This document shows, in pieces, positions 7,459 to 35,177 of a DNA stretch of 48,865 nucleotides. The stretch is from Candidatus Methanomethylicia archaeon. Its GTDB lineage: Archaea > Thermoproteota > Methanomethylicia > Nezhaarchaeales > B40-G2. Made by a program: the position numbers and the translations under genes. Where the stretch lies: contig JAPDJI010000018.1 in NCBI GenBank assembly GCA_029259155.1, positions 1 through 48,865 on the forward strand, written 5' to 3'. How positions within the stretch are numbered: the stretch's first letter is position 1; the number at the start of each line of letters is the position of its first letter. A model generated the notes under the pieces. The model was not told where the DNA came from, ran no database searches, and worked only from the letters and a program-made list of their open reading frames with translations.

Positions 7459-7580
7459 TTAACCGTCGACTGGGGTTGGTGTGCCGTAGCTGGGTAAGGC
7501 CTAACTCATCGCGCGGGGCCTAAGCCCCGCCTACTCGTTAAGGCCCCTGTCACTACGGCCTCTTCTCCCCCGACGGTTAA
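7459..7580 (-). ncRNA. H/ACA-like guide RNA inside a bulge-helix-loop processing stem
   Basis: Minus strand: stem GCCGTAG/CTACGGC then ACA; pocket; AAC-GA...GAT-GA-GTT K-turn; apical GCGGGGC-TTAG-GCCCCGC; flanked by 10-bp stem TTAACCGTCG/CGACGGTTAA, GGGG/CCCC helix and AGT bulge. Confidence 0.7.
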
Positions 7581-7608
7581 GAGAAAAACCGCACACGTGC
7601 TCTTATCC

Positions 7609-9276
7609 TTAACCTCGCTTAAGCTCTAAAAGCTTAGAAACATCAAGCTCGAAAGCCGCTACAGGGTTTTCCAATCTAAACGAAGACAAGACTGCTGGAT
7701 TAATCTCCCCGAGCAAAGCCACCTTGGATCCCTTCACGACCAGCCAGGCTACCCTCCCCTTAATGAAGGAAGGATGGTCTTCAGCCTCCACCGACCATTC
7801 TTCGAAGCCTAGGTTCCTGAGCAACGAGTATAACACCGCCTGCACGTCCTCGTAACCTACCTCACGGTCGCAGATGGCGCAGGCAATCTTTCTTATCATC
7901 CTAGTTTTCGTAGGCTTATCCTCATCTATCACTACGACGTCTCCACACTCGAAAATACGTTGAGGAAGCGAAGCATGTCTATTATGGCTTAGAAACTCGA
8001 GAAGCAAAGGTAGGAGCCAATTTCGTAGACAAGTATAGTCACGCGACACCGGGTTTTCAAGGATAACCGCTGAGCCAGGGTTAAGTAACATGTTATGGAA
8101 AAGTACCTCCTCAGACGTTAATACGTAGCTCAGTACCTCTTGAAAGCCGAAGCCTATCATCAACTCCCTGATCTTCGATGAAAAGACCGTCACCTCAAGC
8201 TCTTTTCCGACCTGAGTTGAAGGGGGGATTAATGGTGATAGTTTATCGTAGCCGTAGCCTATGGCTATGTCCTCTATTATATCTACAGCGTGAAGTATGT
8301 CACATCGGTAAGGTGGAGCCCACGCACGTATTGAACGGTCATCGACCTTCTCTACGAAGTACCCCATCTTAGTTAAACAGGCCTCAGCCTCCTTAACGTT
8401 CACCTCAATACCTATGAGCTTAGATGCCTCAACTAGATCAACTTCAACCCCTATAGGAGAGAGGAAAGGAGGGTTGAGGAGCCTGTCAGGATAAGCCACT
8501 TCTACGCTCTCTATTACTCCACCGCGCTCAGCCAGGTTTAAGGCCATGACGTTTAGGACCTTACTCACCGCCTCCATATCCACACCGGTTACGTCGAGAA
8601 GGATATCGGTGGTCGAAGAGGACACTCTTGTAAGGTTTCCGTTTATGATAGGCGGCATCGATAACACCCTGCCCTCAGAGTCGTAGAGGAGAGGATACTT
8701 TTGAAAACCTCGTAAAAGATGAGCATACTCCCTCCCCTTCTCGGTCTTTGTTAAAATCTCGTCACCGCTCATCTCCTCCACTTCATCGAGAGGAGTGAAC
8801 CTGATCTGCGATGGAGGTAGGGCTGCATAGATTATCTCGTTGCCTACCGCCTTTAAGTCGTGGACACCGATGGACACCTTCATCCTTCTCCTACAGTAAG
8901 TCAAATGAAGTTTTTCCTGCAACATCATTACTTGCCTAACCGCCTCTTCAGAAAGCTTAACCCCCCTGACCACCGCGCATAGAATGAAGGGCCTAACCTC
9001 CAAGACAGAGGAGTCAACCTTAACCTTCACGGGCCCCCTGATAGCTGAATAACCTCGAGGACCTTCGAGCCCCATAAAGAGCCTTAAAGCCCTAGCGATA
9101 CCTTCAGCACTCAGCATGTCAGGTCTATCAGCATTGACCTCTATGGTAACCTCGTCATCGACCACAGACTCCACCAAACACTTATGTAGGAAAAGACATT
9201 CGCTCAGCTCCTCTATAGTCACTTCCTTGCCTATCAAGGAGGTTAAATCGTCATAGCTTGTAGTGATAGTGGGCAT
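7609..9276 (-). CDS. pheT: Phenylalanyl-tRNA synthetase beta subunit
   Basis: NADRPDMLSAEGIAR, QEKLH, SMPPIING, YRCDILHAVDIIEDIAIGYGY. Confidence 0.97.
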   Translation of the reverse strand: MPTITTSYDDLTSLIGKEVTIEELSECLFLHKCLVESVVDDEVTIEVNADRPDMLSAEGIARALRLFMGLEGPRGYSAIRGPVKVKVDSSVLEVRPFILCAVVRGVKLSEEAVRQVMMLQEKLHLTYCRRRMKVSIGVHDLKAVGNEIIYAALPPSQIRFTPLDEVEEMSGDEILTKTEKGREYAHLLRGFQKYPLLYDSEGRVLSMPPIINGNLTRVSSSTTDILLDVTGVDMEAVSKVLNVMALNLAERGGVIESVEVAYPDRLLNPPFLSPIGVEVDLVEASKLIGIEVNVKEAEACLTKMGYFVEKVDDRSIRAWAPPYRCDILHAVDIIEDIAIGYGYDKLSPLIPPSTQVGKELEVTVFSSKIRELMIGFGFQEVLSYVLTSEEVLFHNMLLNPGSAVILENPVSRDYTCLRNWLLPLLLEFLSHNRHASLPQRIFECGDVVVIDEDKPTKTRMIRKIACAICDREVGYEDVQAVLYSLLRNLGFEEWSVEAEDHPSFIKGRVAWLVVKGSKVALLGEINPAVLSSFRLENPVAAFELDVSKLLELKRG

Positions 9277-10833
9277 CTACCTCACCTCCCTTAGGTATAG
9301 GGGCCTCGATCTAAGCCATTCCAATCTTCTAGTATGTAGTTCTCTTATGTCGTCTATGTCTAGGACCACCATCGCCAGCCTCTCTATGCCAATGCCCCAG
9401 GCAGCTACAGGGAAATCTATTCCTAAAGGTTTAAGGACCTCAGGCCTAAACATGCCTGCCCCGACGAACTCCACCCATCCAAGCTTAGGGTGTTTAATGA
9501 AGCCCTCCACGCTGGGCTCAGTGAAGGGGAAGTAACCTGGTTTGAATTTAACTTCCCCAAGCCCCAACGCTGAAGCAAGGCCCTCTATAACCCCTAGTAG
9601 GTGGCGTAAGCTTACACCAACGTCACCGTAAATGCCCTCAAGTTGCATGAACTCCATGGAGTGCTTAGCATCTAAAACATCAGGCCTAAACACCTTAGAC
9701 AGACAGAACATACGTACAGGCGGTGTAGGATGAGTGGCTAAGTATCTCATAGACACAGCGGTGGTTTGAGTCCTCAGTACCAGCCTCCTAGCCACTTCAG
9801 GGTCCCAACGATATCTCCACCCTGTCGATCCAGTTATCCAGCCATCCTCATGTACTCTTTGAACCTTCTCCTCAAGCTCCTTTATCTCGATACAGCCTCG
9901 ATTAGGTTTCTTCACCCTGAAGCTATCATGTATTTCACGGGCAGGATGATCTTGTGCCTGAAAGAGTACATCAAAGTTCCAGAACTCGGTTTCAACGAAA
10001 GGTCCATCCTGCTCCTCGAAGCCCATAGCAAGCAAAACTTTCCTAACTTCCTCTAGGAACATCAAGTACGGATGTTTCTTTCCAGGGTATATGATGGGGG
10101 GTTCAGCCATTACATTGTACGGCTTAAACCTAACAGAGGACCAAAGCCCTGATTTAAGGAGATCAGGAGTTAAAGCTGTAACCTCTAATGGTACCTCAGC
10201 CAATTCTTCGAGAAACCTCTTACCATGTTCTGTGAGCTTAACCTTAAAGGTCGATCGACACTTAGCCTGAACAAGCTTTCTTTCCTTCAACCTGCTTAGG
10301 CTACTTACATAGGCATTAAGCTCGGAGGCTGGCGTTAATCCTCTCCTTGAAAGTTCGCGTAAAACTCGATGATCTTCATCCTCCTCAGGATTCGCCTTCT
10401 TAGCTTTGACTAGTCTTCCTTCGATGCTCACCCATCCTTTACGACGCGCCCAGCCTAGAGCTATGGTTAGGCTCCTCTCATCAACCTTGAGCCTAGCTGA
10501 GAGCTCTTGAGGCGTAGCTGCGCCTCCAAGTGCTGCAAGTTCTTCATACAAGCGTTGCTCAGGAAGCTTCTGCTCAGCGTAGACCCTACCTTCACTAGTT
10601 AGGTCGAAAAGCTCCTCCTCAGTCTTCTCAAGTTCCAATAGGTCTCTACTTGAAAGCCTATTGAGAGCTGACATTAATGAGCTCCTATCAATCTGACAGG
10701 CATGAGTCAGGTCATCAGCTGAGGCCATCCCCCCTAGCTCACTGAGCTTCCTCAATACCTTGAGCTCAAGAGAGCTTAGCCCAGCCTCCACCGCACTCAC
10801 CTTCTCATCGAAGGAATACCCTTGCAGATACAT
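9277..10833 (-). CDS. pheS: Phenylalanyl-tRNA synthetase alpha subunit (true start probably a GTG about 40 nt downstream of the ORF start)
   Basis: FWNFDVLFQAQDHPAREIHD, LRTQTT, YFPFTEPS, GAGMFRPEVL, WGIGIERL. Confidence 0.97.
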   Translation of the reverse strand: MYLQGYSFDEKVSAVEAGLSSLELKVLRKLSELGGMASADDLTHACQIDRSSLMSALNRLSSRDLLELEKTEEELFDLTSEGRVYAEQKLPEQRLYEELAALGGAATPQELSARLKVDERSLTIALGWARRKGWVSIEGRLVKAKKANPEEDEDHRVLRELSRRGLTPASELNAYVSSLSRLKERKLVQAKCRSTFKVKLTEHGKRFLEELAEVPLEVTALTPDLLKSGLWSSVRFKPYNVMAEPPIIYPGKKHPYLMFLEEVRKVLLAMGFEEQDGPFVETEFWNFDVLFQAQDHPAREIHDSFRVKKPNRGCIEIKELEEKVQRVHEDGWITGSTGWRYRWDPEVARRLVLRTQTTAVSMRYLATHPTPPVRMFCLSKVFRPDVLDAKHSMEFMQLEGIYGDVGVSLRHLLGVIEGLASALGLGEVKFKPGYFPFTEPSVEGFIKHPKLGWVEFVGAGMFRPEVLKPLGIDFPVAAWGIGIERLAMVVLDIDDIRELHTRRLEWLRSRPLYLREVR

Positions 10834-10923
10834 CTCCGTGATAATATAAATCTTAGAGTTGCCAAGGATATCAACTCACAGAGCTTAGGAGCTTCATCAA
10901 CGTATTGGCCGCCTTCATAGAGT

Positions 10924-11742
10924 CTATGAGGAAACTTGGAGAGTTTCGAGGCCATGAATCCTCCAGGGATGTGAATATACGTTAAACCTCTTACCCCTAA
11001 CAAAGCCAATCAGCGTGACCTTATTCTGGTCGGCTGCCTCTATTCCTAAGCTAGTGGGGGCTGATATCGAGGAGACTATAGGGATACCCACCCTGATGGC
11101 TTTTAGGACGACTTCTAAAGAGAGCCTACCACTACAGAATAGAAAGGAGCTCTCTAGATCTATGTTCCTTAAAACCGCCGAGCCTATCGCTTTATCCACA
11201 GCATTGTGTCTACCTATATCCTCAGCGAACGATAGGAGCTCAGCCTCGGAGTTAAAGATGGCTGCAGAATGCGTACCACCAGTTTTCCTGTAGATCTTCG
11301 AGTATCCACGTAGCTTAGAAGCTGCTTCGAGTATTGATTCCTGGTTTACCTTTAGGTTAGAGGGTATAGGTTTAACGGTCAAGGAATCTAAAGCTCTAAG
11401 TTTAAAGCCTACGTTAAGCCCTCCACCACAAGTCGGCTTTGAAGGCTTTAGCTTACGGTATGACCTTAACCTCGATTCAATGGAATGAGAAGCTTGCACG
11501 TATATCTTTTTATCCTCAATATCTACTGACTCTAGATCGCTCAGCTTCTCCAAGATCCCCTCAGATAAAAGAAGACCCACAGCGAGCTCCTTCAATTCTT
11601 CAGGAGTAGCCGTGAAGCTGAAAAGAAGCTCGTCGTTAACGTAAAGCTCAATAAAAGCCTCTACTACCACTTCATCATCCTTAACCTCTCGAAAATCTTT
11701 CGAAAGGTTTATCTTCAATATTCTCCTTGACGAGGTCCCCAT
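10924..11742 (-). CDS. fdhD: Formate dehydrogenase accessory sulfurtransferase FdhD
   Basis: TGGTHSAA, EDIGRHNAVDKAIG, SGRLS, SAPTSLG, GFVRG. Confidence 0.93.
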   Translation of the reverse strand: MGTSSRRILKINLSKDFREVKDDEVVVEAFIELYVNDELLFSFTATPEELKELAVGLLLSEGILEKLSDLESVDIEDKKIYVQASHSIESRLRSYRKLKPSKPTCGGGLNVGFKLRALDSLTVKPIPSNLKVNQESILEAASKLRGYSKIYRKTGGTHSAAIFNSEAELLSFAEDIGRHNAVDKAIGSAVLRNIDLESSFLFCSGRLSLEVVLKAIRVGIPIVSSISAPTSLGIEAADQNKVTLIGFVRGKRFNVYSHPWRIHGLETLQVSS

Positions 11743-11880
11743 GTCACTCTAAGAGGAAAACCCCTGCATCCTTTAATGTCTACCTATCATAAACCAACCA
11801 GGTAGTTCAACATTTATGCTATGCCTAAAACTTTTAGAAGCTCTGAAAAGATCTGTCACAAGAAAGAGGCAGGGAACAGC

Positions 11881-13020
11881 TTGACCTACAACGAGAAGTC
11901 TCAGCGTTTCACGCTTGACCCTTGGAGCAGCGACTTAAAGGTAGAGGACTACGAGAGGTTATGTCAAGAATTTGGTATTAAACCTCTGAAGCCTCTCCTA
12001 CCCATGATTGAGAACCCTCCCCACTTCATTAGACGAGGCATAATCTTCGGTCACCGAGACTTAGAATTGATCTTAGAGGCTGCGAAGAAAAATGAGCCCT
12101 TCGCAGTCATGAGCGGCATTAAACCCACAGGCGACTTCCACCTAGGCACCCTGCTCACCATGAGAGAGATCATATATTTCCAGAAAGCCGGAGGATTAGC
12201 GGTCTACTGCATCGCCGATATTGAGGCTTACGAAGATAACAACATACCCTTCGATGAAAGCAGGCAGATAGCCATAGGCAACATAGCCGATGCCCTAGCA
12301 CTAGGCTTAGATCCTAAGCGGGCCTACATCTATCGGCAGTCCAAGGAACGTAGAGTTAAAGACCTTGCCTACCTCTTCGGGCGTGGGATAACGCTATCCA
12401 CTATAACCGCTATCTACGGTGAACGCCACCTAGGCTTATACATGTCAGCCTTAATACAGGTAGCCGACATACTCCTCCCCCAGCTCAAGGACCTTGGAGG
12501 GCCGAAACCGACAGTTGTCCCCGTAGGAATAGACCAAGACCCCCACATCAGGTTCGCCAGGGACGTAGCGCACCGTTTCCATGAGAAGCTTGGCTTCATT
12601 CCTCCTTCATCCACGTACCATAGAATAATGAGGGGGTTGGACGGATCCCCAAAGATGAGCAAGCGAAACCCCATGAGCTACTTCACCCTCAATGAGGACC
12701 TAGAGAGCATAAAGTGGAAGCTCATGAATGCTTACACAGGTGGTAGAGCGACAGCCAAAGAACAACGTGAGCTTGGAGGGATACCAGAACAGTGTTGTAT
12801 CTATGAGCTATGCGTCTTCTACTTCGTCGAGGACGACAAGGAACTCCTAGACATGTATATGAAGTGTAGGCGAGGAGAAGTCCTATGCGGCGACTGTAAA
12901 ATTAAGGTAGTAGAGAAAGTGATTAAGTTTATAGAGGAGCACCAGCGACGAAGAAATCGCTTCATAGACACAGCGAGGAGCCTGATCGAAGAGGAAGACC
13001 AGAAACCTAGCTATCTATAA
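11881..13020 (+). CDS. trpS: Tryptophanyl-tRNA synthetase
   Basis: LDPW, RRGIIFGHRD, GIKPTGDFHLG, PVGIDQDPHIR, KMSK; TTG at 11881 preferred over the ORF start 11821. Confidence 0.95.
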   Translation: MTYNEKSQRFTLDPWSSDLKVEDYERLCQEFGIKPLKPLLPMIENPPHFIRRGIIFGHRDLELILEAAKKNEPFAVMSGIKPTGDFHLGTLLTMREIIYFQKAGGLAVYCIADIEAYEDNNIPFDESRQIAIGNIADALALGLDPKRAYIYRQSKERRVKDLAYLFGRGITLSTITAIYGERHLGLYMSALIQVADILLPQLKDLGGPKPTVVPVGIDQDPHIRFARDVAHRFHEKLGFIPPSSTYHRIMRGLDGSPKMSKRNPMSYFTLNEDLESIKWKLMNAYTGGRATAKEQRELGGIPEQCCIYELCVFYFVEDDKELLDMYMKCRRGEVLCGDCKIKVVEKVIKFIEEHQRRRNRFIDTARSLIEEEDQKPSYL

Positions 13021-13117
13021 ACTGAACTTGGCCTCTACATCACCTCTCCATCAAAGCGAAACCCTCTTATAGGATACGTAGGCCCGAGTACTCTTTGAAG
13101 ACTAAGGTGTTCACTTT

Positions 13118-13729
13118 ATGGACCCAAACACTAAAGCCTTCGACGTAGCACTAGCTGAGCTTTCAAGTTTCATCTCTCAGTTATCATCCTCCATAGATAG
13201 AGAGCAAGTGGAGAAAATGCTGGGCATGTTGATAGAGGCGTGGAGCTGGGGCAAAGTAGTGCTCGTTGTAGGCGCAGGCAGGAGTGGGCTTGTCGGTAGA
13301 GCTTTCGCCATGAGGTTGATGCACCTCGGCTTCAGGACCTATGTGGTCGGTGAAACCATTACTCCAGGTGTGGGGGTAAACGACCTACTTCTCGCTATTT
13401 CAGGCTCAGGCACCACAGGAGTGGTGGTAGCTGCTGCTGAAGCAGCTAAGCGTGTAGAGGCGAAAGTGATAGCTATCACTACCTTCTCCGACAGCCCTCT
13501 CGCTAAATTGGCGGATCACGTAGTGATAATTCCTGGAAGGGCCAAGACCAGCGAAGAAACCGACTATTTCTCTAGACAAATCTTAGGGATGCATGAACCC
13601 TTAGCTCCGCTAGGTACATTATTTGAGATTGCCACCATGATTTTCCTAGACAGCGTCATTGCCGAACTCATGCACAGGCTAGGGAAAACAGAAAGGGAAA
13701 TGCGGAGCCGACACGCCATAATAGAGTAG
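13118..13729 (+). CDS. hxlB: 6-phospho-3-hexuloisomerase (SIS domain)
   Basis: GAGRSGLVGRAFAMRLMHLG, ISGSG, APLGTLFE. Confidence 0.93.
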   Translation: MDPNTKAFDVALAELSSFISQLSSSIDREQVEKMLGMLIEAWSWGKVVLVVGAGRSGLVGRAFAMRLMHLGFRTYVVGETITPGVGVNDLLLAISGSGTTGVVVAAAEAAKRVEAKVIAITTFSDSPLAKLADHVVIIPGRAKTSEETDYFSRQILGMHEPLAPLGTLFEIATMIFLDSVIAELMHRLGKTEREMRSRHAIIE

Positions 13730-13819
13730 CATGTAGGAAAATCTATTTATATCAGAGCAAGTAAGCAGCCTCCACCTAGGAGGGCGCTGTAGTGAGGGAT
13801 CGACAAATTCGACCTAGCG

Positions 13820-15415
13820 TTGAAACAAGTAGAGGTCTACGACACCACGCTTAGAGATGGCGCTCAAGGTAGAGGAGTAAGCTTCTCGCTTCAAGATAAG
13901 ATTAGCTTGACGCTTAAGCTAGACGAATTCGGCGTCCATTTCATTGAAGGTGGATGGCCCAGCTCAAACCCTAAAGACCTAGAGTATTTTAGAGTAATTA
14001 GCGGCTATAGATTATCCAATGCTAAGGTAGTAGCCTTTACAAGTACACGTAGGAAAGACATTAAGGTTGAGGAAGACCCCAACCTAAACGAGGTGCTTCG
14101 TAGCGGAGTGGAAGTAGCCACTGTTGTCGGTAGTAGTTCTCAGTTCCACGTTGAGAAAGTCCTTAAAACCAGCTTAGAAAACAACCTTGAAATGATCTAC
14201 GATACCATAAAGTACCTTGAAAGTCATGGACTTAAAGTGGTGTTCGACGCCGAGCACTTCTATGATGGCTTTAAGGCCAACCCCTTCTATGCCTTAAAGG
14301 CCGTTAAAGCCGCTGAGGAAGCTGGAGCCTTCAGAATAGTGCTCTGCGATACAAATGGTGGAAGCCTACCTCACGAAGTACAAGAAGTGACTAGGAAAGT
14401 AAAGGGGGAGGTTAAAGCGGCTCTAGGGGTTCACTGCCACAACGACGCAGGGATGGCTGTAGCCAATACTTTAGCCGCAGTCATGGCAGGTGCCATACAG
14501 GTTCAAGGAACCATAAACGGCTTCGGTGAGCGTTGCGGTAATGCAGACCTATGCCAGGTCATACCCGCGCTCGAGCTTAAATTAGGGATTAAAGCATTAG
14601 CGGTGGATAAGCCAATAGATGAAAGACTAAAAGGATTAACTAAGCTCTCTGCATATGTCTATGAGCTAGCTCATGTCCCACCAAACCCCTACCAGCCTTA
14701 CGTGGGCGAGTACGCCTTTGCCCATAAAGCAGGAATACACATAGATGCTGTGATGAAAGCTTTCAGTGCATATGAACATGTTAACCCAGAGCTTGTGGGC
14801 AACCGCCGTTTAATAACCGCCTCTGAAGTAGTTGGCAAGGCAGGCGTGGTGAGCAAGGCTAGAGAGATGGGGCTTCCTCTAAGCGAGAACGATCCAGCAG
14901 CACTAAATATCCTTAAGGAAATCAAGGACCTAGAATATCAAGGATACCAGTTAGAGAACGCTGACGCTACTCTCTATCTCATAATGCTCAAACATATGGG
15001 AATTTACGAAGAATTCTTCAAAGTTCTAGCGTGGAGAACAGTAACCGAAGCCAAAAACAACGAGGTAGTTGCAGAGTGCTCGGTCAAAGTTAAGGTAGGT
15101 GCTGAGATCATGCATGATATATCAGAGGGCCTAGGCCCAGTTCACGCCCAGGACCTAGCGATTCGGAAAGCACTATCAAAAACCTATCCTGAAGCTCTAA
15201 ACGTTCAACTCGTCAACTATAAGGTATCAGTAATAGACAGCGGAATGGGCACTGCGTCAAAAGTAAGGGTATTCATCGAGTTTAGCGACGGCAACCGTAC
15301 TTGGGGCACCGTAGGAGTATCTACTAACGTACTCGAAGCTAGCAAGAAAGCACTAGCCGACGGCTACGATTACTACTTACAGCTAATGAGAAATCCTTGG
15401 TTAAAACTTCTCTAG
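13820..15415 (+). CDS. cimA: Citramalate synthase (LeuA/CimA family)
   Basis: DTTLRDGAQG, IEGGWPSSNPKD, FDAEHFYDG, LCDTNGG, HCHND, GERCGNA. Confidence 0.9.
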   Translation: MKQVEVYDTTLRDGAQGRGVSFSLQDKISLTLKLDEFGVHFIEGGWPSSNPKDLEYFRVISGYRLSNAKVVAFTSTRRKDIKVEEDPNLNEVLRSGVEVATVVGSSSQFHVEKVLKTSLENNLEMIYDTIKYLESHGLKVVFDAEHFYDGFKANPFYALKAVKAAEEAGAFRIVLCDTNGGSLPHEVQEVTRKVKGEVKAALGVHCHNDAGMAVANTLAAVMAGAIQVQGTINGFGERCGNADLCQVIPALELKLGIKALAVDKPIDERLKGLTKLSAYVYELAHVPPNPYQPYVGEYAFAHKAGIHIDAVMKAFSAYEHVNPELVGNRRLITASEVVGKAGVVSKAREMGLPLSENDPAALNILKEIKDLEYQGYQLENADATLYLIMLKHMGIYEEFFKVLAWRTVTEAKNNEVVAECSVKVKVGAEIMHDISEGLGPVHAQDLAIRKALSKTYPEALNVQLVNYKVSVIDSGMGTASKVRVFIEFSDGNRTWGTVGVSTNVLEASKKALADGYDYYLQLMRNPWLKLL

Positions 15416-15721
15416 TAAAGACAGCTCAACCACAAATAAAACTAGCATGCAGATCAACAAAAATTCTATTCAGCATTTCTAAGGCCGAACGTTTCATTGA
15501 AATACATTAGAACGGGGAGGTAGGGCCCCCCTATTCATCCTCAGCCGTTCGGCAGCGTTGTAGGAGGGAAACAGGCATTTGTAAAGTGTCCAGCAGGAGG
15601 TATTTTAGGTTTACACGCCTCAATTTAGAGCCTTAGCCCACCTTGACGATAAGGTTTAATTGATCCACCTCGACTCCTTAAGCTAGGCCTCCCGTAGCGG
15701 TTTTTAAGGAGGGTTTAAGGC

Positions 15722-17098
15722 TTGTCCGAGATCGTTAAGACAGGAATTGAAGGTTTTGATGAGGCTTTCGGAGGGTTCTGTAAAGGACAGGTCATAATGG
15801 TGCTGGGCAACGCAGGCAGCGGTAAGACCACGTTCTGTGCAAAGTTTCTCTATGAAGGAGCCAGGAAGTTTAAGGAGCCAGGAGTGTTCATCAACACCAT
15901 CGAGAACAAGAAGGAGTTTTACGAGTACATGAAGGAGCTAGGCATGGACTTCGAGAGTCTCGAGAGAGAAGGGTTGTTTAGGTACGTGGAAATATTGACG
16001 CCCACGTCAAAGGACGCGTTGATGAACCTCTCAAAGGAATTGACCAAGCATGCGATAGAGTGCAACGCGAAGAGGATAGTCGTGGACTCCATAACACCTA
16101 TATTCATGCTAGGACCATCCATAGAGGCCAGAGCAATACTACATAATGCCCTAAAAACCCTCGTAAGGGAGCTAGGCGCCGTGCTACTCATAACTGGCGA
16201 GATGCCGCTAGGCAATGAGAGGATAGGCCACGGAGTTGAGGAATTCGTCGTCGACGGTATTATAAAGCTGAAGCTTGAAGTACCTGAGGCAGGAGCCCCA
16301 AGGAGGATCATGGAGGTCTTAAAGCTAAGAGGACGTCCGCTCAGTAGAGCCTTCTACGACTTCGAGATAGGTGCACCAACAGGCTTCAAGGTATACCTAT
16401 CAGGAGTCCTAGAGGAGCTTGAATCCAGCATAAACCTAGAGGATAGGATAAACACTGGAGTCGAGGGAATCGATGAAATGCTGGGCGGAGGTTTGGTAAG
16501 GAACACCTCAACGCTAATAGTGGGACCGCCCGGCTCAGGGAAAACTCTCTTCATGTTAACTTTAGCAGCGGAGAACACATTGAAGGGAGAAAGGGTGGCT
16601 TTCATCACCTTCGAGGAGCCGAGACAACAGATCTACGCTACCTTAAAGTTTCTCCGCTACGACCCAGACGAACTTGAGAGGAAGGGGCTTAGGGTCTTAA
16701 GTCTAAACCCTAGAGCCATCACCATGAGGGCCTTCTACGACGTTGTTCAGGGCTTTAGTAGGCTAAGCGAAGGCAAAGGTTCACTGCTAATAGTGGACGG
16801 CATAAATTCACTTAGAAAAGAGTTCGGAGTCAACTTCCATAGAGTCGTGAGGGACCTTGTGCTTCAAGCCAAGAAAGCGGAGGTCACCGTCATATTCTCG
16901 ATTCTAAAGGAGAGAGAAGCCACAAGCAAGGAAGCCTTAACTTACCTAAGCACCTTAGCAGACAACATCATAGAGTTCAGAGTCGCCGAAAAGGAGAGAG
17001 TGAGAAGGGAGGTCTTCGTGCTCAAGGCGAGGATGAGTTCGATATCCACCGAGATACGTGAGCTTGAGCTTAAGGAAGGCAGGCTTAAGGTTAGGTGA
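15722..17098 (+). CDS. KaiC-like tandem RecA-fold ATPase
   Basis: Two domains each beginning TG(I/V)EG.DE..GG; Walker A GNAGSGKT and GPPGSGKT; C-domain YLSTLADNII, LKAR. Confidence 0.88.
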   Translation: MSEIVKTGIEGFDEAFGGFCKGQVIMVLGNAGSGKTTFCAKFLYEGARKFKEPGVFINTIENKKEFYEYMKELGMDFESLEREGLFRYVEILTPTSKDALMNLSKELTKHAIECNAKRIVVDSITPIFMLGPSIEARAILHNALKTLVRELGAVLLITGEMPLGNERIGHGVEEFVVDGIIKLKLEVPEAGAPRRIMEVLKLRGRPLSRAFYDFEIGAPTGFKVYLSGVLEELESSINLEDRINTGVEGIDEMLGGGLVRNTSTLIVGPPGSGKTLFMLTLAAENTLKGERVAFITFEEPRQQIYATLKFLRYDPDELERKGLRVLSLNPRAITMRAFYDVVQGFSRLSEGKGSLLIVDGINSLRKEFGVNFHRVVRDLVLQAKKAEVTVIFSILKEREATSKEALTYLSTLADNIIEFRVAEKERVRREVFVLKARMSSISTEIRELELKEGRLKVR

Positions 17099-18335: not shown

Positions 18336-18336
18336 C

Positions 18337-25003: not shown

Positions 25004-25006
25004 GAA

Positions 25007-25321: not shown

Positions 25322-25403
25322 GGTAAAGAGACCTCCGCTAAACTGTTTCTACTCTTTGGAGCGTTTAAAGCTAGGAGAATTAGGATTTAAAGCTTCTTGC
25401 AAG

Positions 25404-27662: not shown

Positions 27663-27730
27663 CGCGATCCGCCGCTGTCTATTAGTTGTCGACGTAGGTA
27701 GATTTAGGGGTTATGACTGGCTCCGTCAAG

Positions 27731-28066
27731 CTAGTTAACGCTTCGCCATTCCTCTATAAGCCTCTCCCCTTCACTATCCTCTACCTTAAACTCCTCGTAC
27801 TTACCTTCACGCTCCGCGATCTCTTGAGCTTTCAAGTGGTAGCATTCCTTTACCTTAGACCTAGCAACCACGTTGATAAAAAAGTCGTCACATGAACAAT
27901 ACCTGCCTGGGATCACCCAATAGTCACGCCCCCTACCTACAACCACCCAATACACTCTCCCGCTGGGGATAAAGACGTATTTTTTAACCCTGCCTTGGTT
28001 AACGGCCTCTATAGCTTTCCTCAACCTCTCCTCCTTGACTTCATGGGGGATTGAGGGCACCAACAA
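27731..28066 (-). CDS. SWIM zinc-finger protein
   Basis: YCSCDDF...CYHLKA. Confidence 0.85.
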   Translation of the reverse strand: MLVPSIPHEVKEERLRKAIEAVNQGRVKKYVFIPSGRVYWVVVGRGRDYWVIPGRYCSCDDFFINVVARSKVKECYHLKAQEIAEREGKYEEFKVEDSEGERLIEEWRSVN

Positions 28067-28104
28067 ACAGATAACCTCCAGTTCTAGGTTAGTAGTGTAG
28101 AACT

Positions 28105-28896
28105 ATGCTTAAAATCGTTCCCGGAGAGCCTGCAGCGCTAATTAAGGGTAAGGAAAAGGTCTTGGTAGCGGCAGACCTACATATAGGTTTTGAGAAGGAG
28201 CTCTCTAGGATAGGCGTCAATATACCGTCACAGACCGAGAAGCTCTTCCTAAAGCTTAAGTCCCTCATCAATCGTCTAAAGCCAGATAGGGTAATATTGC
28301 TAGGCGACGTGAAACACGGGGTACCAGCAATATCAGACCAAGAATGGGCTGACCTGCCTTTATTCTTCGAGAAACTTTTAGAGTCCGGGGTATCCGTGGA
28401 GGTGGTCCCTGGAAACCACGACGGCAACCTTGAACCATTGACGCCTCGTGGCGTAGTTATCCATGACTCCAGGGGGGTTGAGGTAGAGGGTGTAGCTTTA
28501 TTACATGGACATACGTGGCCTTCCCCTAGGCTCTTAGCGTGTAAAACGATGTTGATGGGGCATAATCACTTAGTAGTTGAATTGAGAGATGGACTAGGTT
28601 TTAGGGAGGTTGTGCCTGTTTGGTTAATGGTGGAGGTCCCACCACCCTCAGCCAAGGAGTTATGCATGAAAGTAACGAGGAATAGAGAGGAGTGGAGCAG
28701 GTTGAAGATAAGTAGGCTTGTAGTTATGCCAGCCTTTAACACTTTACTTTCAGGTAAGCCCGTTAACTCTGAGGAGCGAAGTTTCCTCGGACCTATATTG
28801 GAATCAGGGTTACTGGAGCTTCAAGACTCTGAGGTTTACATGATCGACGGTACCTATATGGGAAGAGTAGGTGAAATACCTAGGCTGCCATATTAG
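28105..28896 (+). CDS. Calcineurin-like metallophosphoesterase
   Basis: ADLHIG, LGDVKH, GNHD, HGH, GHNH, MPAFN. Confidence 0.9.
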   Translation: MLKIVPGEPAALIKGKEKVLVAADLHIGFEKELSRIGVNIPSQTEKLFLKLKSLINRLKPDRVILLGDVKHGVPAISDQEWADLPLFFEKLLESGVSVEVVPGNHDGNLEPLTPRGVVIHDSRGVEVEGVALLHGHTWPSPRLLACKTMLMGHNHLVVELRDGLGFREVVPVWLMVEVPPPSAKELCMKVTRNREEWSRLKISRLVVMPAFNTLLSGKPVNSEERSFLGPILESGLLELQDSEVYMIDGTYMGRVGEIPRLPY

Positions 28897-29169
28897 CCTC
28901 TAGCAGAGTAGACCCTAAGGTTAAGCGTGAGGAAAACAAGGCGCAAACACACCGGAAGTTACCTTGCCATCCATGTAGGAGTGTAGGCTTAAATCGGTGT
29001 AAATAGGATAGACTGCTTATCGCCAACAACTATCATGTTTCGTGACCATTACTAGCAGCTTTTCATTAGCTCGTCGATCATGGGGAACTTCTAATAAAAT
29101 AGTTATCCTTAAATAACCTCGCTCGCCAGCTACGGTGAAAAACCTAGCAGGACGTAGGGGTGCAGCACG

Positions 29170-29334
29170 ACGGGGAAGTATAAGCCGCCCAAAGAACGAA
29201 AGTATGGTAAGGGCTCTAGGACCTGTAGGATCTGTGGTACTCATGAGGCTTTAATCAGGAAGTACGGGTTGCTGATCTGTAGACGATGCTTCAGAGAGGT
29301 CGCTGAGAAGTTAGGCTTTAAGAAGTATTGGTAG
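29170..29334 (+). CDS. rps14: 30S ribosomal protein uS14 (missed by ORF track; ACG start)
   Basis: Translates (M)[53 protein letters not shown]; in-frame TAG at 29155 and no ATG/GTG/TTG before the conserved N-terminus. Confidence 0.95.
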
Positions 29335-29347
29335 AGAGGCGGTTAAC

Positions 29348-29740
29348 ATGACCATGAACGACGTGCTTTCTAACGCCCTCGCTGTAATTATGAACGGCGA
29401 GGAGGGAGGTAAGAACGAGTGCTTAGTCATCCCTGCGTCAAAGCTGGTAGCCAACGTGTTGAGAGTGTTGCTCAAGGCAGGTTACATCGGGAACTTCGAG
29501 TACATCGATGACGGGAGACAGGGTAAACTAAAGGTACAGCTTTTAGGTAGGATCAATAAGATAGGTGCCATTAAACCTAGGAGGCCGGTCAAAGTAAAGG
29601 ATTATGAAGCAGTGGAGAAGGAATACCTACCGTCTTTTAACGTTGGATTGTTGATAGTATCAACGCCCCAAGGAATTATGTCACACGTGGAAGCAAAGCA
29701 GCGTGGCCTTGGAGGAATCCTGCTAGCCTACGTTTATTAA
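29348..29740 (+). CDS. rps8: 30S ribosomal protein uS8
   Basis: [42 protein letters not shown]. Confidence 0.97.
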
Positions 29741-29760
29741 TGGGAGAGGGGTGAAGATTT

Positions 29761-30318
29761 ACGGTCAAGCTACTCGTTATTCCTCCTCACCAAGCACAGG
29801 TCAGGATAGAGGATGATGTAGAAGTAGAGGTGGAAGGTAACGTAGTTACTGCTAAAGGCCCTCTAGGCAGCTTAACAAAGGATTTCTCTAAACATCATGT
29901 AGAGATTGAGAAAAGCGACGGAGTATTAGTGGTTAAGTCAAGAGTGAAGGGGAAGAGGGGGAAGGCACTGGTAGGAACTATCGCTGCCCACCTTGAAAAC
30001 ATGATGAAAGGTGTGAAGAAAGGTTATACCTATAAGTTAAAGATAGTTTATTCACACTTCCCCATCTCCGTGCATGTGGATAAAGATAAAGTAATCGTGG
30101 AGAACTTTAGGGGAGAGAAACGGAAACGTATCGCCAAGGTGCTTGAAGGAGTCGAGGTTAAGGTAGAGGGGGACGACATAGTCGTTAAAGGAATAGACAT
30201 AAACGCTGTAAGCCAGACCGCAGCTAATATAGAGCTGGCTGCCAAATCTAGGGGTTACGATCCAAGGGTCTTCCTGGACGGGATCTACGTTTACAGAAAG
30301 GAGGAGGGTATGGCGTGA
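29761..30318 (+). CDS. rpl6: 50S ribosomal protein uL6 (probable ACG start at 29761)
   Basis: KGPLG, HLENMMKGV, YSHFPI, DPRVFLDGIY; frame extends 23 codons upstream of the ORF start to ACG after GGGGTGA. Confidence 0.95.
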   Translation, partial: TVKLLVIPPHQAQVRIEDDVEVEVEGNVVTAKGPLGSLTKDFSKHHVEIEKSDGVLVVKSRVKGKRGKALVGTIAAHLENMMKGVKKGYTYKLKIVYSHFPISVHVDKDKVIVENFRGEKRKRIAKVLEGVEVKVEGDDIVVKGIDINAVSQTAANIELAAKSRGYDPRVFLDGIYVYRKEEGMA

Positions 30319-30686
30319 GGAGGCTGCTTAGGCTTAGAAACCTCATGAATAGAAAGAGGCCCAGATTCATGAGGATGAACGTCCAAGGATTGAAGAGGCT
30401 TGAGGACTCATGGAGGAGGCCTAGAGGACTCGACAATAAGATAAGGATTTGTCGAAGAGGTTATCCTGAGATTGTAAGCATAGGTTTTCGAGGACCTAGA
30501 GCTGTAAGGGGACTTCACCCTTCAGGGTTGAGAGAGGTGCTTGTATATAACCCAGGTCAGCTCGAAGGCCTAAACCCTAGGAGGCACTGTGTAAGGATAG
30601 CTAGCAGCGTGAGTAGACGTAAACGAGCAGAGATCATGGAGAGAGCCTCAAAGATGAAGCTTCGAGTACTAAATCCTTCAATCTAA
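30315..30686 (+). CDS. rpl32e: 50S ribosomal protein eL32
   Basis: WRRPRGLDNKIR, RGLHPSG, LRVLN. Confidence 0.95.
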   Translation: MRRLLRLRNLMNRKRPRFMRMNVQGLKRLEDSWRRPRGLDNKIRICRRGYPEIVSIGFRGPRAVRGLHPSGLREVLVYNPGQLEGLNPRRHCVRIASSVSRRKRAEIMERASKMKLRVLNPSI

Positions 30687-30701
30687 GGAGGAGATGGAAG
30701 G

Positions 30702-31151
30702 TTGTCGGCTGTAGACAGCGTGAAACGAATGGCTTCTAGCATATTAGGCGTAGGTATAAGCAGAGTCTGGATAGACCCGGAACAGCTCGATAGAGTGTCT
30801 ACCGCCATAACTAGGGAAGATGTCAGGAAGCTTATTAAGGAAGGAGTGATCAAGGCCAAACCTAAAAGAGAGATTTCAAGAGCCCGGTGGAGGGAGGCTA
30901 AAAGTAAGCGTCGTAAAGGGCTTAGGAAAGGACCTGGCAGCCGTAAAGGAAGGATAGTCGACGAAAAAGAGCTTTGGATGGCTAAGGTTAGAGCTTTAAG
31001 AAAACTCCTAGCCACGCTTAAGAGGCGTCGCATCATAACCCGCTCGACCTATAGGAAGCTGTACATAATGGTGAAGAGCGGGGCCTTTCAAAATAAAGCT
31101 CAGCTAAAAACCTACATCAAAGAGAAGGGGTTAGCTAGGACTCTACCATAG
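30702..31151 (+). CDS. rpl19e: 50S ribosomal protein eL19
   Basis: RVWIDP, AITREDVRKLI, GPGSRKG, YRKLY. Confidence 0.96.
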   Translation: MSAVDSVKRMASSILGVGISRVWIDPEQLDRVSTAITREDVRKLIKEGVIKAKPKREISRARWREAKSKRRKGLRKGPGSRKGRIVDEKELWMAKVRALRKLLATLKRRRIITRSTYRKLYIMVKSGAFQNKAQLKTYIKEKGLARTLP

Positions 31152-31162
31152 GAGGGTAAGGG

Positions 31163-31762
31163 TTGGCTAGAGGAGCTCTATATCGTGTACCTTTTAGACG
31201 TAGGAGGATGGGGCTAACTAACTATAAGCTTAGGAGAGGCCTACTCCTTTCGAGGAAACCTCTACTTGTTTTACGTAAGACTAACATGCATATCATAGCC
31301 CAGCTCGTTAAGCCTAGGCCACAAGGGGACGAAGTACTAGCCTCAGCTACCAGTATGGAACTTAGGAGAGGCTATGGCTGGAAAGCTTCCTGCAAGAACA
31401 GTTCAGCTGCATACCTGACAGGCTACCTCTTAGGGGTTAAGGCTTCTAAGCTTGGGATAAAAGAAGCGGTACTTAACCTAGGTCTCCACAGACCCGTTAA
31501 GGGATCCACCCTGTTCGCCGCCTTAAAAGGAGCTTTAGACGCAGGTCTAGAAATTCCTCACAGCGAAGAGATCTTGCCAAGCGAGGATAGAATTAGAGGA
31601 AAGCATGTAGAGGAGTATGCTACTAGGCTCGCCAGCGAAGACCCTGAACTATACGCTAAGAGGTTTTCGGGGTATTTAGCAAGAGGCCTTAAGCCGGAGG
31701 AGCTAACTAAACACTTCGAGAAAGTTTTAGCTAAGATAAAGGAAGCCACTAAAACTTTATAG
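31163..31762 (+). CDS. rpl18: 50S ribosomal protein uL18
   Basis: [38 protein letters not shown]. Confidence 0.96.
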
Positions 31763-31809
31763 GCTACCCACGATCTCTAGCCTCAGCTCATCGAGGGAGG
31801 TGATGGTAG

Positions 31810-32461
31810 ACGGCGCACAGCATAGAGTACTGGGTGCCTAAGACTGCAATAGGTAGGATGGTTAAGGAAGGCCTAATAACCAGCATAGACCAAGTCTTCG
31901 CTATGAATCAAACCATTAAGGAGCCTGAGATAGTTGACATATTGATACCAGGGCTAAGCCACGAGATCATCGACGTCAGCCTCGTCCAGAAACAGACGGA
32001 TACCGCCTAATCGCCTTAGGCGGCCGTAAGCTGGGGAGCTCTCCAGGTTTAAGGTAGTGGTAGCTATAGGTAACGGAGATGGCTACATAGGTTTAGGCAG
32101 CGCTAAGGCCAAGCAGATGCGCAACGCCATCGATAAAGCCATAATTGATGCGAAGCTAAACATAATACCTGTTAGGAGAGCTTGTGGAAGCTGGGAGTGT
32201 AGGTGTAATGAACCTCATAGCGTACCATTTAAGGTCACGGGAAAAGCTGGAAGCGTAGAGATAACTCTCATCCCTGCTCCTCGTGGAACAGGACTTGTAG
32301 CCGGAGACGTAGGTAAAATAGTGCTACGCTTAGCTGGCATAAAGGATGTATGGACTAAGACCAAGGGAGAGACGAGGACCGCGCCTAACTTTGCTAAAGC
32401 CATTTACGAAGCCCTCAAACAAACCTATAAAGTCAAAACAGTCTCTAAGTGGGCTGCATAG
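31810..32461 (+). CDS. rps5: 30S ribosomal protein uS5, join(31810..32001,32030..32461), 207 aa, ACG start, contains an intron
   Basis: Exon 1 ...[15 protein letters not shown]...EPEIVD...VQKQTD; exon 2 [15 protein letters not shown]...CGSWEC; frames join after removing 28 nt. Confidence 0.93.
32002..32029 (+). other. 28-nt BHB intron in rps5 mRNA
   Basis: CAG-ACGG-AT^A-CCGCCTAA-tcgcc-TTAGGCGG-CCGT-AA^G-CTG: perfect bulge-helix-bulge. Confidence 0.92.
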
Positions 32462-32463
32462 CC

Positions 32464-32934
32464 ATGGCTAAGCTCCTAGCAGCCATCAGGCTCAGAGGCA
32501 TAGTAGGAGTACCAGAAGATATAGAAGTCACTCTAAAGCTCCTAAGGTTAAACAAGAAGAACCATGCTACTATAGTGGAGGATACCCCGACCTATAGAGG
32601 GATGCTCCAGAAAGCTTCAGGCTACTTGACGTATGGTGAAATAGACCTAGAAACCTTAGCCATGTTGCTTAGGAGAAGAGGAAGACTAAGAGGAAATAAA
32701 CCTGTAACCGACGAGTACGCTAAGAAGTTAGGGCTTAACAGTGTGGAGGAGTTAGCCTCAGCCTTGATGGAGGCGAAGCTTAAGCTTAAAGACCTGCCAA
32801 ACTTTAAACCAGTCTTCAGGCTACACCCTCCAAGCAAAGGCTTCAAGCAAAGCCTCAAAAAACCTTATGGAGCTGGTGGAGAGCTAGGATATAGAGGAGA
32901 AACCATAAATGAGTTGCTTAAAAGGATGATGTGA
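32464..32934 (+). CDS. rpl30: 50S ribosomal protein uL30
   Basis: AIRLRG, TLKLLRL, FRLHPPSKGF, GELGYRGETINELLKRM. Confidence 0.96.
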   Translation: MAKLLAAIRLRGIVGVPEDIEVTLKLLRLNKKNHATIVEDTPTYRGMLQKASGYLTYGEIDLETLAMLLRRRGRLRGNKPVTDEYAKKLGLNSVEELASALMEAKLKLKDLPNFKPVFRLHPPSKGFKQSLKKPYGAGGELGYRGETINELLKRMM

Positions 32935-32937
32935 CGC

Positions 32938-35177
32938 TTATTTAGGCATGAAGTCCTCTGGCTTAGGTATCTCCTTGGGAAGACCTTTACGTTCTCTAAC
33001 CTTCATTATCGTCGGTACGAGCAAGCTCTCAGGTATAGGCTCCCATCCTCTTACTTCTAAAGCCCAGAATGCTCTACCGGCCGTGGCACTCCTTATCTCG
33101 TTCGCTAGATCAAAGGTTTCAGCTACGGGTATCTCTCCTTTAACAGACATTAGCATCCCAGCGGACTCCAAGTTCAAGATCTTGCCTCTCCTCGTAACTA
33201 TTACTCTTGTAAGCCCTGAAATGTAGTCTGGAGGGCATTTGGCCTCTATCTTCATTATGGGCTCAAGTAACGTAGGCTTAGCCGAGAGGAAGCCGCACAT
33301 GATAGCGTCTTTGAGAGCTGGCATCATCTGGGCTGGACCACGGTGTGCTGGGTCTTCATGGATTTGAGCGTCTACCAGTACTACTTTAACCCCTCTAACC
33401 GGCTCGTGACATAATGGCCCCTCAGCCATGGTCCAGTGGAAGCCGGAGATTAGCGTGTCCTTAACTTCTCTCAGGTGCTGTAAGCCCTTCGTTACGTCAA
33501 CGAAGATGTTGAGGTGTTCATCAATCGACCAGATGTTACGCGCTTCATCGGCATCCCAGCCAGCTTTTTCACGTAGTATCTTAGCTCTAACCCTCCAGTC
33601 CTGTCCATCGTAGATCTCGCTGCGCTCGAGCAGTTCCATGGTGGCTGAGTCTAGAGGCTCTACCTTAATGTAGACCCTATTGTGTTTATTAGGGCTCTTA
33701 CCTTCAAAGGGACCAGCTGACTTCCTGATAGTTTCCCTGTAAACCACTATGGGCGGCGAGGTTACGACCTCTAAGCCACCTGTACGCTGTTGAAGATCCC
33801 ATAGTGCTATTTCGAGATGTAATTGACCCATGCCAGCGATCAGATACTCCCCGGTCTCCTCGTTAATCTTCACGTAGAGCGTAGGATCCTCTATGGCCAT
33901 CCTTCTAAGAGCATCCACCAGCTTAGGCAGGTCGCTTGTATGTTTAGGCTCTATGGCCATCGTAACGACAGGCTCGCTTATGTAGCGCAGCCTCTCAAAG
34001 GGCACCATAACCCCTTTCAGTACCTTATCAACTATGGTCTCACCTGCCCTCGCCCTATCCAAGCCCAGCATAGCCACTATGTTGCCTGCCACGACAGAGT
34101 CGCAGACCTCTCTATAAGGACCCATGTAGAGACCTACCTGCTGTATCTTACCGTCATCACGGGCCATAACCAAGTATACATCCTCACCGGTGTATGCCGT
34201 ACCGGAAAACACTCTTCCCGTAGCTACGAGACCTGCATGCGGATCAGAGATTACCTTGCTGACACAGATGACCGTTGGGCCTTTGTCGTCGCAGTTTAAC
34301 ATGGCCTTACCTACTTCGCTTTCCAGATCACCCTTCCACAACTTAGGTATACGGTACTTCTGAGCCTCGAGAGGGTTCGGAACATGCTCAACTATCATGT
34401 CCAGTATAGCTTCGTAAAGCGGGGCCTCCTTGGCCAGCTCCTCTACGTAGCCTTTTTCATAAGCGTCAACTATATTGGAGAACTTGAACCCTTTCCTCTG
34501 CGCTATGGGTACTGTAAGCCCCCATTTATGTAAAGCTGAGCCGAAGGCTACTTGGCCCTTGGCGAAGTCAACCTTCCATACCTTTTTGAACTCAGGCTCA
34601 GCGTAAAGTTCTATGAGCGAGTTGAAGTCCTTCACAATCTCTATGAAGCGCTGCTGAATTTCGTTAGGGGATAATTTAAGTTCCTTGATTAGTCTGTCCA
34701 CCTTATTGATGAATAGAAGGGGCCTGATACGCTCCTCTAAGCCTTGGCGCAGTACGGTCTCGGTCTGGGTCATAACTCCCTCGACTGCATCGCAAACCAC
34801 GAGCCCACCATCCATTACCCTTAGGGAGCGGGTCACGTGGCCTGTAAAGTCGACGTGGCCAGGCGTATCTACCAGGTTTATCACGTAGGGTTTACCTTGC
34901 CACTCGTGGTAGAGAGAGACGTTGGCCGCCTTAACGGTCATCTGTCTTAACTGAGCGCAGGGAGGGAAGAGCCCTCCATGCTCTGCTCTATCTCTACATA
35001 ATCTAAGGCCAACGCCTTCCCCGCTACCTTAGGCGAAAGCATGCCGGCAGCCATCAACAGGCTGTCGCTGGTAGTGGTCTTACCATGGTCTACGTGAGCT
35101 AACGTGCCTATGTTACGTACCTTCTCCCTATCCTTCATCAGCCTTAGTACTTCCTCGGTCTGCTTGAACTTCACCAT
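32938..35177 (-). CDS. fusA: Translation elongation factor EF-2, join(complement 34983..35177, 32938..34950), 735 aa, contains an intron
   Basis: Exon 1 AHVDHGKTT...ALDYVEIEQ; exon 2 [10 protein letters not shown]...DTPGHVDF...NKVD...[11 protein letters not shown] (diphthamide His). Confidence 0.95.
34951..34982 (-). other. 32-nt BHB intron in EF-2 mRNA
   Basis: Minus strand TA-GAGC-AG^A-GCAtGGAGGG-ctctt-CCCTCCcTGC-GCTC-AG^T-TA. Confidence 0.9.

Follow-up and report, generated by a model that had tools for sequence, protein, structure and literature searches.

Introns in archaeal tRNA and rRNA are bounded by a motif known as bulge-helix-bulge (BHB), in which a helix forms between the 5′ exon and the intron's 3′ end, as it does in the anticodon arm; they are removed by the splicing endonuclease EndA, which cuts after the second base of the bulge, and the exons are joined by RtcB. 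BHB motifs with both flanking helices are called strict and those without them relaxed. An intron in the coding region of cbf5 was reportedly described by Watanabe in 2002. In the available parts of two reports, cbf5 is given as the only archaeal protein-coding region with a confirmed intron, other cases being unconfirmed predictions (PMC2738675, PMC7714728); the cbf5 introns of Desulfurococcales and Sulfolobales, in the accessible text of the first, are 16-44 bp long and mostly have unconventional BHB motifs (Yokobori 2009, PMC2738675). A BHB intron in the 5′ untranslated region of Haloferax volcanii HVO_1309 was confirmed in vivo and in vitro, according to the accessible portion of its description (Schwarz 2020, PMC7714728). 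Here we describe short inserts of BHB geometry that interrupt the genes for ribosomal protein uS5 and elongation factor aEF-2 in a Candidatus Methanomethylicia archaeon (GenBank assembly GCA_029259155.1, contig JAPDJI010000018.1, positions 1 to 48,865, hereafter the window). In the literature searched, with subscription papers and supplements outside its scope, no report was found of BHB introns in uS5, aEF-2, aIF5B or this lineage.

The window spans the whole of contig C13 in a 1.55-Mb genome of 47 contigs, which is 94% complete with 2.6% contamination; below, G000 denotes this genome, other G numbers related genomes, f numbers families (f1 being its own) and L numbers loci. It holds a ribosomal-protein cluster that aEF-2 adjoins on the opposite strand; within it ARAGORN found no tRNA and Rfam matched no family at gathering score. 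The uS5 gene is split into open reading frames (ORFs) at 31834..32010 and 32057..32461 (+), and the aEF-2 gene into ORFs at 34947..35177 and 32938..34941 (-), yet the NCBIfam models for both proteins are matched contiguously over the breaks (Table 1), as is Pfam GTP_EFTU in aEF-2 (1-52 and 55-187). Inserts of 28 nt in uS5 and 32 nt in aEF-2, 2.9 kb apart and neither divisible by 3, carry or cause an early stop. Each gene is single-copy, with one match in the genome. It is very probable that the two inserts are archaeal BHB introns in protein-coding genes, which EndA would remove and whose exons RtcB would join.

The geometry is that of a BHB motif in both genes, with two 3-nt bulges on opposite strands, each 3′ of its helix strand. 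In uS5 the motif is full and of the strict form, with flanking helices on both sides: an outer helix h1 of 3 bp (CAG/CUG), a central helix ACGG/CCGU between bulges AUA and AAG, and a perfect 8-bp inner stem (h2) closed by a 5-nt loop. In aEF-2 the central helix is GAGC/GCUC, the bulges are AGA and AGU, and h2 has 9 bp with one mismatch; with an outer helix that is only weak, this motif is of the relaxed form. Splicing in silico gives ...QKQTD-AGELSRF... for uS5 and ...VEIEQ-LRQMTVK... for aEF-2 (a hyphen in a peptide marks the junction), as in intron-less relatives; around the aEF-2 junction the alignment to the intron-less G008 gene is gapless, with 12 of 12 identical residues on either side. 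A sequence-only reading of the window had proposed two unrelated micro-introns in core translation genes about 3 kb apart, alike in geometry only and of lengths that are not multiples of 3. The inserts read in the DNA agree with it in separation, in length and in having no sequence likeness to each other, and geometry, frame restoration and conservation with compensatory changes place both in the BHB class.

Table 1. Coordinates of the introns, their motifs and exons, and of two structured RNAs. Positions refer to the window unless a contig of G000 is named; h1, H and h2 are the outer, central and inner helices.
Feature	Position	Strand	Basis and details
uS5 exon 1	31834..32001	+	ORF; NF003125 12-67; ends ...QKQTD; end set by the BHB cut and intron-less homologues (QKQTD-AGE)
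uS5 BHB intron, 28 nt	32002..32029	+	Sequence and fold; in-frame TAA is the third codon
uS5 BHB motif, whole	31993..32033	+	Read from sequence
uS5 motif, h1 and H	h1 31993-31995/32031-32033; H 31996-31999/32024-32027		
uS5 motif, bulges and h2	bulges 32000-32002 and 32028-32030; h2 32003-32010/32016-32023		
uS5 exon 2	32030..32461	+	Frame open from 32030; NF003125 76-207; Pfam S5 N- and C-domains
aEF-2 exon 1	34983..35177	-	ORF; TIGR00490 4-65; ends ...LDYVEIEQ; intron-less homologues EIEQ-LRQMTVK
aEF-2 BHB intron, 32 nt	34951..34982	-	Sequence and fold
aEF-2 motif, H and bulges	H 34985-34988/34953-34956; bulges 34982-34984 and 34950-34952	-	
aEF-2 exon 2	32938..34950	-	ORF; TIGR00490 68-719
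cbf5 BHB intron, 23 nt	G000 C2:28850-28872	-	Inside the GGTLD-PK motif
aIF5B BHB intron, 29 nt	G000 C2:13183-13211	-	Junction; both reference genomes carry their own stop-containing insert
Radical-SAM gene (AmmeMemoRadiSam-type) BHB intron, 30 nt	G000 C7:47511-47540	+	In frame, with a stop
H/ACA-like RNA	7459..7580	-	Hairpin 7483-7559; ACA 7480-7482; GAUGA K-turn-like element; fold z-score -6.4
Outer stem of the 7459-7580 element	10 bp 7459-7468/7571-7580; 3-nt bulge 7469-7471; 4 bp 7472-7475/7567-7570		
Second H/ACA-like hairpin RNA	7342-7453	+	ACA 7436-7438, then a T-run

For each of the two genes, 30 related genomes were searched. The uS5 insert occupies the same site in 14 genomes (f1, 4 of 4; f3, 10 of 10), which are 14 of the 20 related loci read in sequence; the other six (f2, f4, f6, f7 and f8) lack it and read QxQTD-AGE. 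The remaining 10 loci (L052-L058, L060-L062) were judged by their matches, which are contiguous, and by open frames no shorter than 203 aa, rather than by sequence. Insert length varies from 22 to 34 nt over the 14 genomes and is a multiple of 3 in five; the reading frames of these five are still short (144-150 aa), and removal is therefore still needed. The predicted pairing is found in 98.1% of cells over the 14 sequences, against 13-44% when the partner strand is slid; seven pairs have changed on both sides, 0 of 500 shuffles come up to these values, and in 2 of the 14 genomes the central helix itself covaries from ACGG/CCGU to ACAG/CUGU, a G-C pair having become A-U. In a sample of the phylum (121 genomes from 36 families, with f3 outside the sample), a short uS5 frame was seen in three genomes only, all of f1.

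The aEF-2 insert is found at the same site in all four f1 genomes, with lengths of 32, 32, 29 and 29 nt; among the 30 genomes searched, every other locus that extends to the site lacks it. Pairing holds in 98.2% of cells over the four sequences, against 31-61% with the partner slid, and four stem pairs have changed on both sides; 1 in 500 shuffles came to such values. A different irregularity occurs in the aEF-2 gene of G029 (L022, about 1490-1510), where some 20 nt are missing, so that TGHVTRSL comes straight after INLLD and no DTPGHVDF motif is left; direct repeats flank the gap, which resembles a deletion or a collapse in the assembly and does not look like an intron.

Public DNA data agree with the assembly. 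Contigs of four runs from four studies carry the uS5 insert unchanged, and contigs in three of them bridge the aEF-2 insert without a gap; no intron-less joint was seen for either gene in the contigs of these four runs. This DNA may itself derive from three of the runs, which leaves a single run as clearly independent. In run X6, two contigs, one ending at 34950 and the other starting at 34985, leave the aEF-2 insert uncovered and have no evidential weight.

The genome encodes the enzymes that such splicing would require. Two genes with a tRNA_int_endo domain specify proteins of 183 and 209 aa. The 183-aa protein aligns end to end with the Aeropyrum pernix alpha subunit (3P1Z_B, E 2.6e-53), without gaps through the Crenarchaea-specific loop, and has K39 and K41 at the positions of K44 and R46; that loop and its lysine confer broad substrate specificity, as stated in the accessible part of the relevant report (PMC3241643). 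The 209-aa protein has the same fold but in the alignment lacks the catalytic His, and would fit, as expected, a structural, non-catalytic subunit. RtcB is also encoded, on contig C17 (593 bits). From its sequence the endonuclease is classed as a two-subunit, crenarchaeal-type enzyme of relaxed specificity, predicted to be a heterotetramer. The sequence-only reading had anticipated an EndA of relaxed specificity, and this typing, with a separate catalytic alpha subunit bearing the Crenarchaea-specific loop, a non-catalytic partner and RtcB alongside, accords with it. ARAGORN calls an intron in 13 of 41 tRNAs, several of these calls being dubious; the genome uses the tRNA-splicing pathway heavily.

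In the mechanism we propose, the gene would be transcribed together with its insert, and a helix of 4 bp, set between two 3-nt bulges, would arise from pairing of the last bases of exon 1 with the insert's 3′ end. The tRNA-splicing endonuclease, with its catalytic alpha and non-catalytic subunits, would cut after the second base of each bulge, and RtcB would ligate the exons into an mRNA for intact uS5 or aEF-2. Unspliced RNA gives only truncated protein, and production of uS5 and aEF-2 should therefore need the tRNA-splicing enzymes; that expression of the two genes depends on EndA and RtcB would follow from the sequence. We infer that both introns are spliced constitutively.

Introns elsewhere in the genome were sought by comparison with two references, G016 (complete, from another family, 1,521,743 b) and G008 (73% fetched). 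In a split-hit scan, 1,283 of 5,634 G016 ORFs matched this genome (E below 1e-10); 17 of the matches were split, and an intron-sized insert was found in three only, those to uS5, aEF-2 and cbf5 (23 nt). The reverse search, of this genome against G016, found no such insert in G016, and with the fetched part of G008 as reference nothing further survived reading. The scan is blind to in-frame introns and to introns shared with the reference, and it missed those of aIF5B and the radical-SAM gene. In a second method, 29,189 candidates of true geometry and 28,993 of mirrored geometry were spliced in silico and their junction peptides aligned to the references. A strict form of this test, which admitted only gapless alignments with identity at 6 or more of the 12 residues on both sides and with no opposite-strand ORF of 100 or more codons, and which excluded the rRNA contigs C26 and C42, returned four loci with true geometry (uS5, aEF-2, cbf5 and radical-SAM) against one weak locus with the mirrored decoy.

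Less stringent approaches did not separate true geometry from decoy. A structure-only scan of the whole genome was uninformative (466,640 true against 465,486 mirrored candidates), as were its versions with open-frame filters (6,809 against 6,805), for short introns (1,562 against 1,566) and for compact hairpins (223 against 211); lax junction-homology tests were equally flat (161 against 173, 292 against 304 and 40 against 39 loci). The census as a whole covers inserts of 12-120 nt with a strict 4-bp helix and an h2 of at least 3 bp, in genes that have a homologue in G016 or in the fetched 73% of G008; shared introns show up only between strongly conserved flanks.

In the genes open to comparison, five protein-gene introns were detected in total, in uS5, aEF-2, cbf5, aIF5B and the radical-SAM gene, four of them in genes for translation or ribosome biogenesis. 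A single rule, in which the helix has 4 bp and each 3-nt bulge is cut after its second base, gives back the conserved protein for all five genes. The aIF5B insert has 29 nt here, 33 nt in G008 and 27 nt in G016; the central helix GCCA/UGGU and the bulges UGA and AAA are identical in the three genomes, and the stems differ with compensation. The IF-2 model NF003078 is matched contiguously over the aIF5B break (6-44 and 45-342), and TIGR04337 spans that in the radical-SAM gene (4-57 and 60-336). In cbf5 the break falls inside a codon. Of the expectation, raised by the sequence-only reading, that the genome would hold many more introns, the part that further ones exist was borne out by cbf5, aIF5B and radical-SAM; "many" was not, at three more and five in all. 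Further BHB-bounded inserts were thus found both in this genome and, as follows, in related ones. About 35 nt downstream of the intron-containing cbf5 gene lies an intron-containing tRNA-Ser(GGA) gene (G000 C2:27933-28038, minus strand).

The five introns differ in their distribution. The cbf5 intron was read in sequence in 21 of 30 loci, in f1, f2, f3, f4, f7 and f8, and is absent from f5 and f6 (G013, which has no full cbf5 match, was excluded from the count). The aIF5B intron was read in sequence in G000, G008 and G016, and on frame length only is assigned to all 15 genomes of the order and to five of seven f5 genomes. The uS5 intron is confined to f1 and f3 and absent from f2 and all other families; the aEF-2 intron at this site occurs in f1 only, as does, judged by frame length, the radical-SAM intron, which is absent from other families. 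Frame length alone is an unreliable guide: G084 and G137 have short aIF5B frames in intact genes. G004, the sole f2 genome, lacks the uS5 intron and has a 25-nt BHB insert in the P-loop of aEF-2, at HGKTTT-SD (L007, about 3600-3625). This nested distribution across related families suggests stepwise gain.

Small fetches from across the phylum (L247, L249-L254) revealed introns in six other families as well. Inserts occur in aIF5B at the same GG(I/M)-TQHIG site in f21, f22 and f31, with a second aIF5B insert at GH-VDHGKT in f21, and in aEF-2 at AH-VDHGKT in f23 and at IR-NIGIIAH in f16 and f27; one of these genomes has two aIF5B introns of 18 nt each. A scripted form of the BHB rule restores the conserved motif for seven introns in six other genomes. 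Two cases were read by eye only, an aEF-2 insert at IR-NIGIIAH in f22, whose stem has an A-C mismatch, and a P-loop insert in f31 that falls outside the strict rule. Taken together, these observations allow a broader proposal, which as a whole we rate as rather unlikely: BHB introns may have colonised the core translation genes of Thermoproteota repeatedly, at no fewer than four sites in aEF-2, two in aIF5B, and in uS5 and cbf5; in this lineage they may have accrued stepwise from cbf5 through aIF5B and uS5 to aEF-2 and radical-SAM, so that making the translation apparatus would run through the enzymes of tRNA splicing, with a possible checkpoint.

A related idea, already present in the sequence-only reading, is that the introns are a regulatory device, the rate of EndA/RtcB splicing setting the output of uS5, aEF-2, aIF5B and Cbf5 and thereby coupling the translation apparatus to tRNA-processing capacity. 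That four of the five introns fall in genes of translation or ribosome biogenesis, that aEF-2 and aIF5B recur as hosts in other families and that introns persist across families would fit this idea. However, the fifth intron lies in a radical-SAM gene, and relatives do without single introns (G004 without that of uS5, f5 and f6 without that of cbf5). The count is itself tilted towards translation genes, because detection favours highly conserved genes. We regard a regulatory role as unsupported and unlikely.

Several observations weigh against reading the inserts as BHB introns. The outer helix of the aEF-2 motif is weak, the fold giving only GAU/GUU with a mismatch included, and a relaxed-specificity enzyme is therefore needed. 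The last codon of aEF-2 exon 1 equals the last three bases of the intron, and the two covary (CAG/CAG here, CAA/CAA in three relatives); BHB geometry does not require such matched triplets, which resemble a take-off and landing pair. Covariation in cbf5 is not significant, because the cbf5 helices are nearly invariant. The position of the cut within the bulge is the general rule for archaeal splicing endonuclease, backed here only by its consistency across cases, and no public run recorded as RNA holds this stretch.

The matched triplets raise the question of whether the ribosome skips the inserts, by translational bypassing or programmed frameshifting, with no splicing of RNA. Matched take-off and landing codons are a feature of phage T4 gene 60, and in aEF-2 a hairpin does lie between the codon before the insert and the covarying final triplet. 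Yet no matched codons occur at the uS5, cbf5, aIF5B and radical-SAM inserts, cbf5 is broken within a codon, and a single BHB rule covers all cases; moreover, covariation preserves the 4-bp helix and the spacing of the bulges, for which bypassing has no need. We consider skipping by the ribosome very improbable. The same holds for removal from the RNA by another route, such as self-splicing or a nuclease other than EndA. Group I and II ribozymes are far larger than these inserts of 22-34 nt, Rfam matched no family in the window, and the geometry is exactly that of EndA substrates, with a covarying exon-intron helix; nothing points to a different nuclease. Least probable of all is that the breaks reflect pseudogenes, strain mixtures or assembly errors: the genome is a metagenome assembly in 47 contigs, of the completeness and contamination given above, with several frameshift-like breaks of 1-2 bases, and a relative (G008) has gene-breaking tandem duplications, but uS5 and aEF-2 are single-copy and essential, in up to 14 species these positions are broken by differing inserts with compensatory changes, and contigs of several runs agree, and for these reasons we exclude it. 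For uS5 and aEF-2 alike, the BHB geometry, the restored frame, the conservation, the covariation and the presence of the enzymes are observed, and BHB introns accordingly remain our preferred reading of both inserts.

The window also contains two strongly structured RNAs (fold z-scores of -6.4 and -4.3) in a 304-nt gap between two convergent genes for aminoacyl-tRNA synthetases. In H/ACA guide RNAs the hairpin contains an internal pocket, its upper stem a K-turn or K-loop, and an ACA stands directly 3′ of the lower stem. Both RNAs here resemble a guide of this type with a single hairpin, each having a lower stem, internal loops, a kink of the GAUGA or UGA type and an ACA immediately after the lower stem. 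The RNA at 7459-7580 has a lower stem, internal loops, a GAUGA element and an ACA directly after the lower stem. No Rfam family matched it at gathering score, and the sole sub-threshold match in 7250-7650, to PhotoRC-I at 7438-7470 (19.4 bits against a cut-off of 45), only touches the edge of the element. The homologue in G001 keeps the hairpin, the K-turn-like element and the ACA, with compensatory changes, and is without the outer stem and bulge. A BHB-like frame around this RNA had been counted as a third element of the proposed splicing system; it proved to be half a BHB, with one canonical bulge on the 3′ side only and a 7/7-nt internal loop on the 5′ side, and it is absent from G001, the one relative with the same RNA. 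With a single bulge and a frame that is not conserved, the element was rejected as a splicing substrate. A long outer stem (GGGGCUGCCCCUGCC / GGCAGGGCCGCCCC) surrounds the second RNA, at 7342-7453, so that its ACA falls within an internal loop; both this RNA and the stem around it persist in G001-G003 with altered sequence.

Other broken genes met in the census were rejected as introns. The break at G000 C4:52098-52166 separates two neighbouring genes whose TTG start and TAA stop overlap; the pair corresponds to a single 1,247-aa ORF in G008, a case of gene fission or fusion. In G008, itself a two-contig genome, the breaks at C1 ~257,750 and ~497,165 are perfect tandem duplications of 19 and ~16 nt, which shift the frame in two conserved genes. 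Two further candidates are repeats between genes. Breaks in which 1-8 bases are added or missing are frameshift-like and do not count as introns; relative to the two references, such breaks in conserved genes lie at G000 C2:57709-60353, C2:106817-107250, C20:329-1329, C12:72-678, C22:599-2579 and C1:71086-71440. In addition, a gene for a 700-750-aa protein in G008 (C1 ~1,285,650-1,285,890) has an in-frame insertion of ~240 nt relative to two G000 paralogues.

The same mechanism would interrupt the essential and universally conserved genes for uS5, aEF-2 and aIF5B in many uncultivated genomes. Gene callers will show such marker genes as split, frameshifted or missing, with consequences for annotation, for estimates of completeness and for marker-gene phylogenies of archaeal metagenome-assembled genomes. 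The introns also provide datable cases of gain and loss in prokaryotic protein genes, and the several independent insertions in the P-loop and switch-I regions of paralogous GTPases bear on how introns may spread through relaxed endonuclease specificity. They are concrete substrates for asking whether archaea regulate protein output via tRNA-type splicing; if the checkpoint proposed above were real, no new ribosomes or factors would be made without working EndA and RtcB.

The uS5 and aEF-2 inserts are real and conserved, and very probably BHB introns, of a kind already known from cbf5. Like the published cbf5 introns, they are short inserts in protein genes with a BHB-like motif, lineage-specific gain and loss and predicted cleavage by a hetero-oligomeric endonuclease, and the likeness extends to the gene itself, since cbf5 carries a 23-nt intron here. 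They differ in that the hosts also include uS5, aEF-2, aIF5B and a radical-SAM gene, in a different lineage and with several introns per genome, and in that the uS5 and aIF5B motifs are strict BHBs. With the introns of archaeal tRNA and rRNA they have the motif and its topology in common and would share the enzymes EndA and RtcB, but no tRNA or rRNA body surrounds it, the joining is in frame and the product would be an mRNA. The HVO_1309 intron is likewise an mRNA substrate of the splicing endonuclease, yet its host is a euryarchaeon whose enzyme is homodimeric, and it sits in an untranslated region, interrupting no reading frame. In the eukaryotic HAC1/XBP1 system, a short insert in a coding mRNA is removed without the spliceosome by Ire1 and a tRNA ligase, with a change of frame and under regulation by stress. 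XBP-1 and RtcB are mentioned in the abstract of one report (PMC8718801). In HAC1/XBP1, as in the mechanism proposed here, an endonuclease and a ligase remove a short insert; the difference lies in the endonuclease, which is Ire1 there and would be the tRNA-splicing endonuclease in this archaeon.

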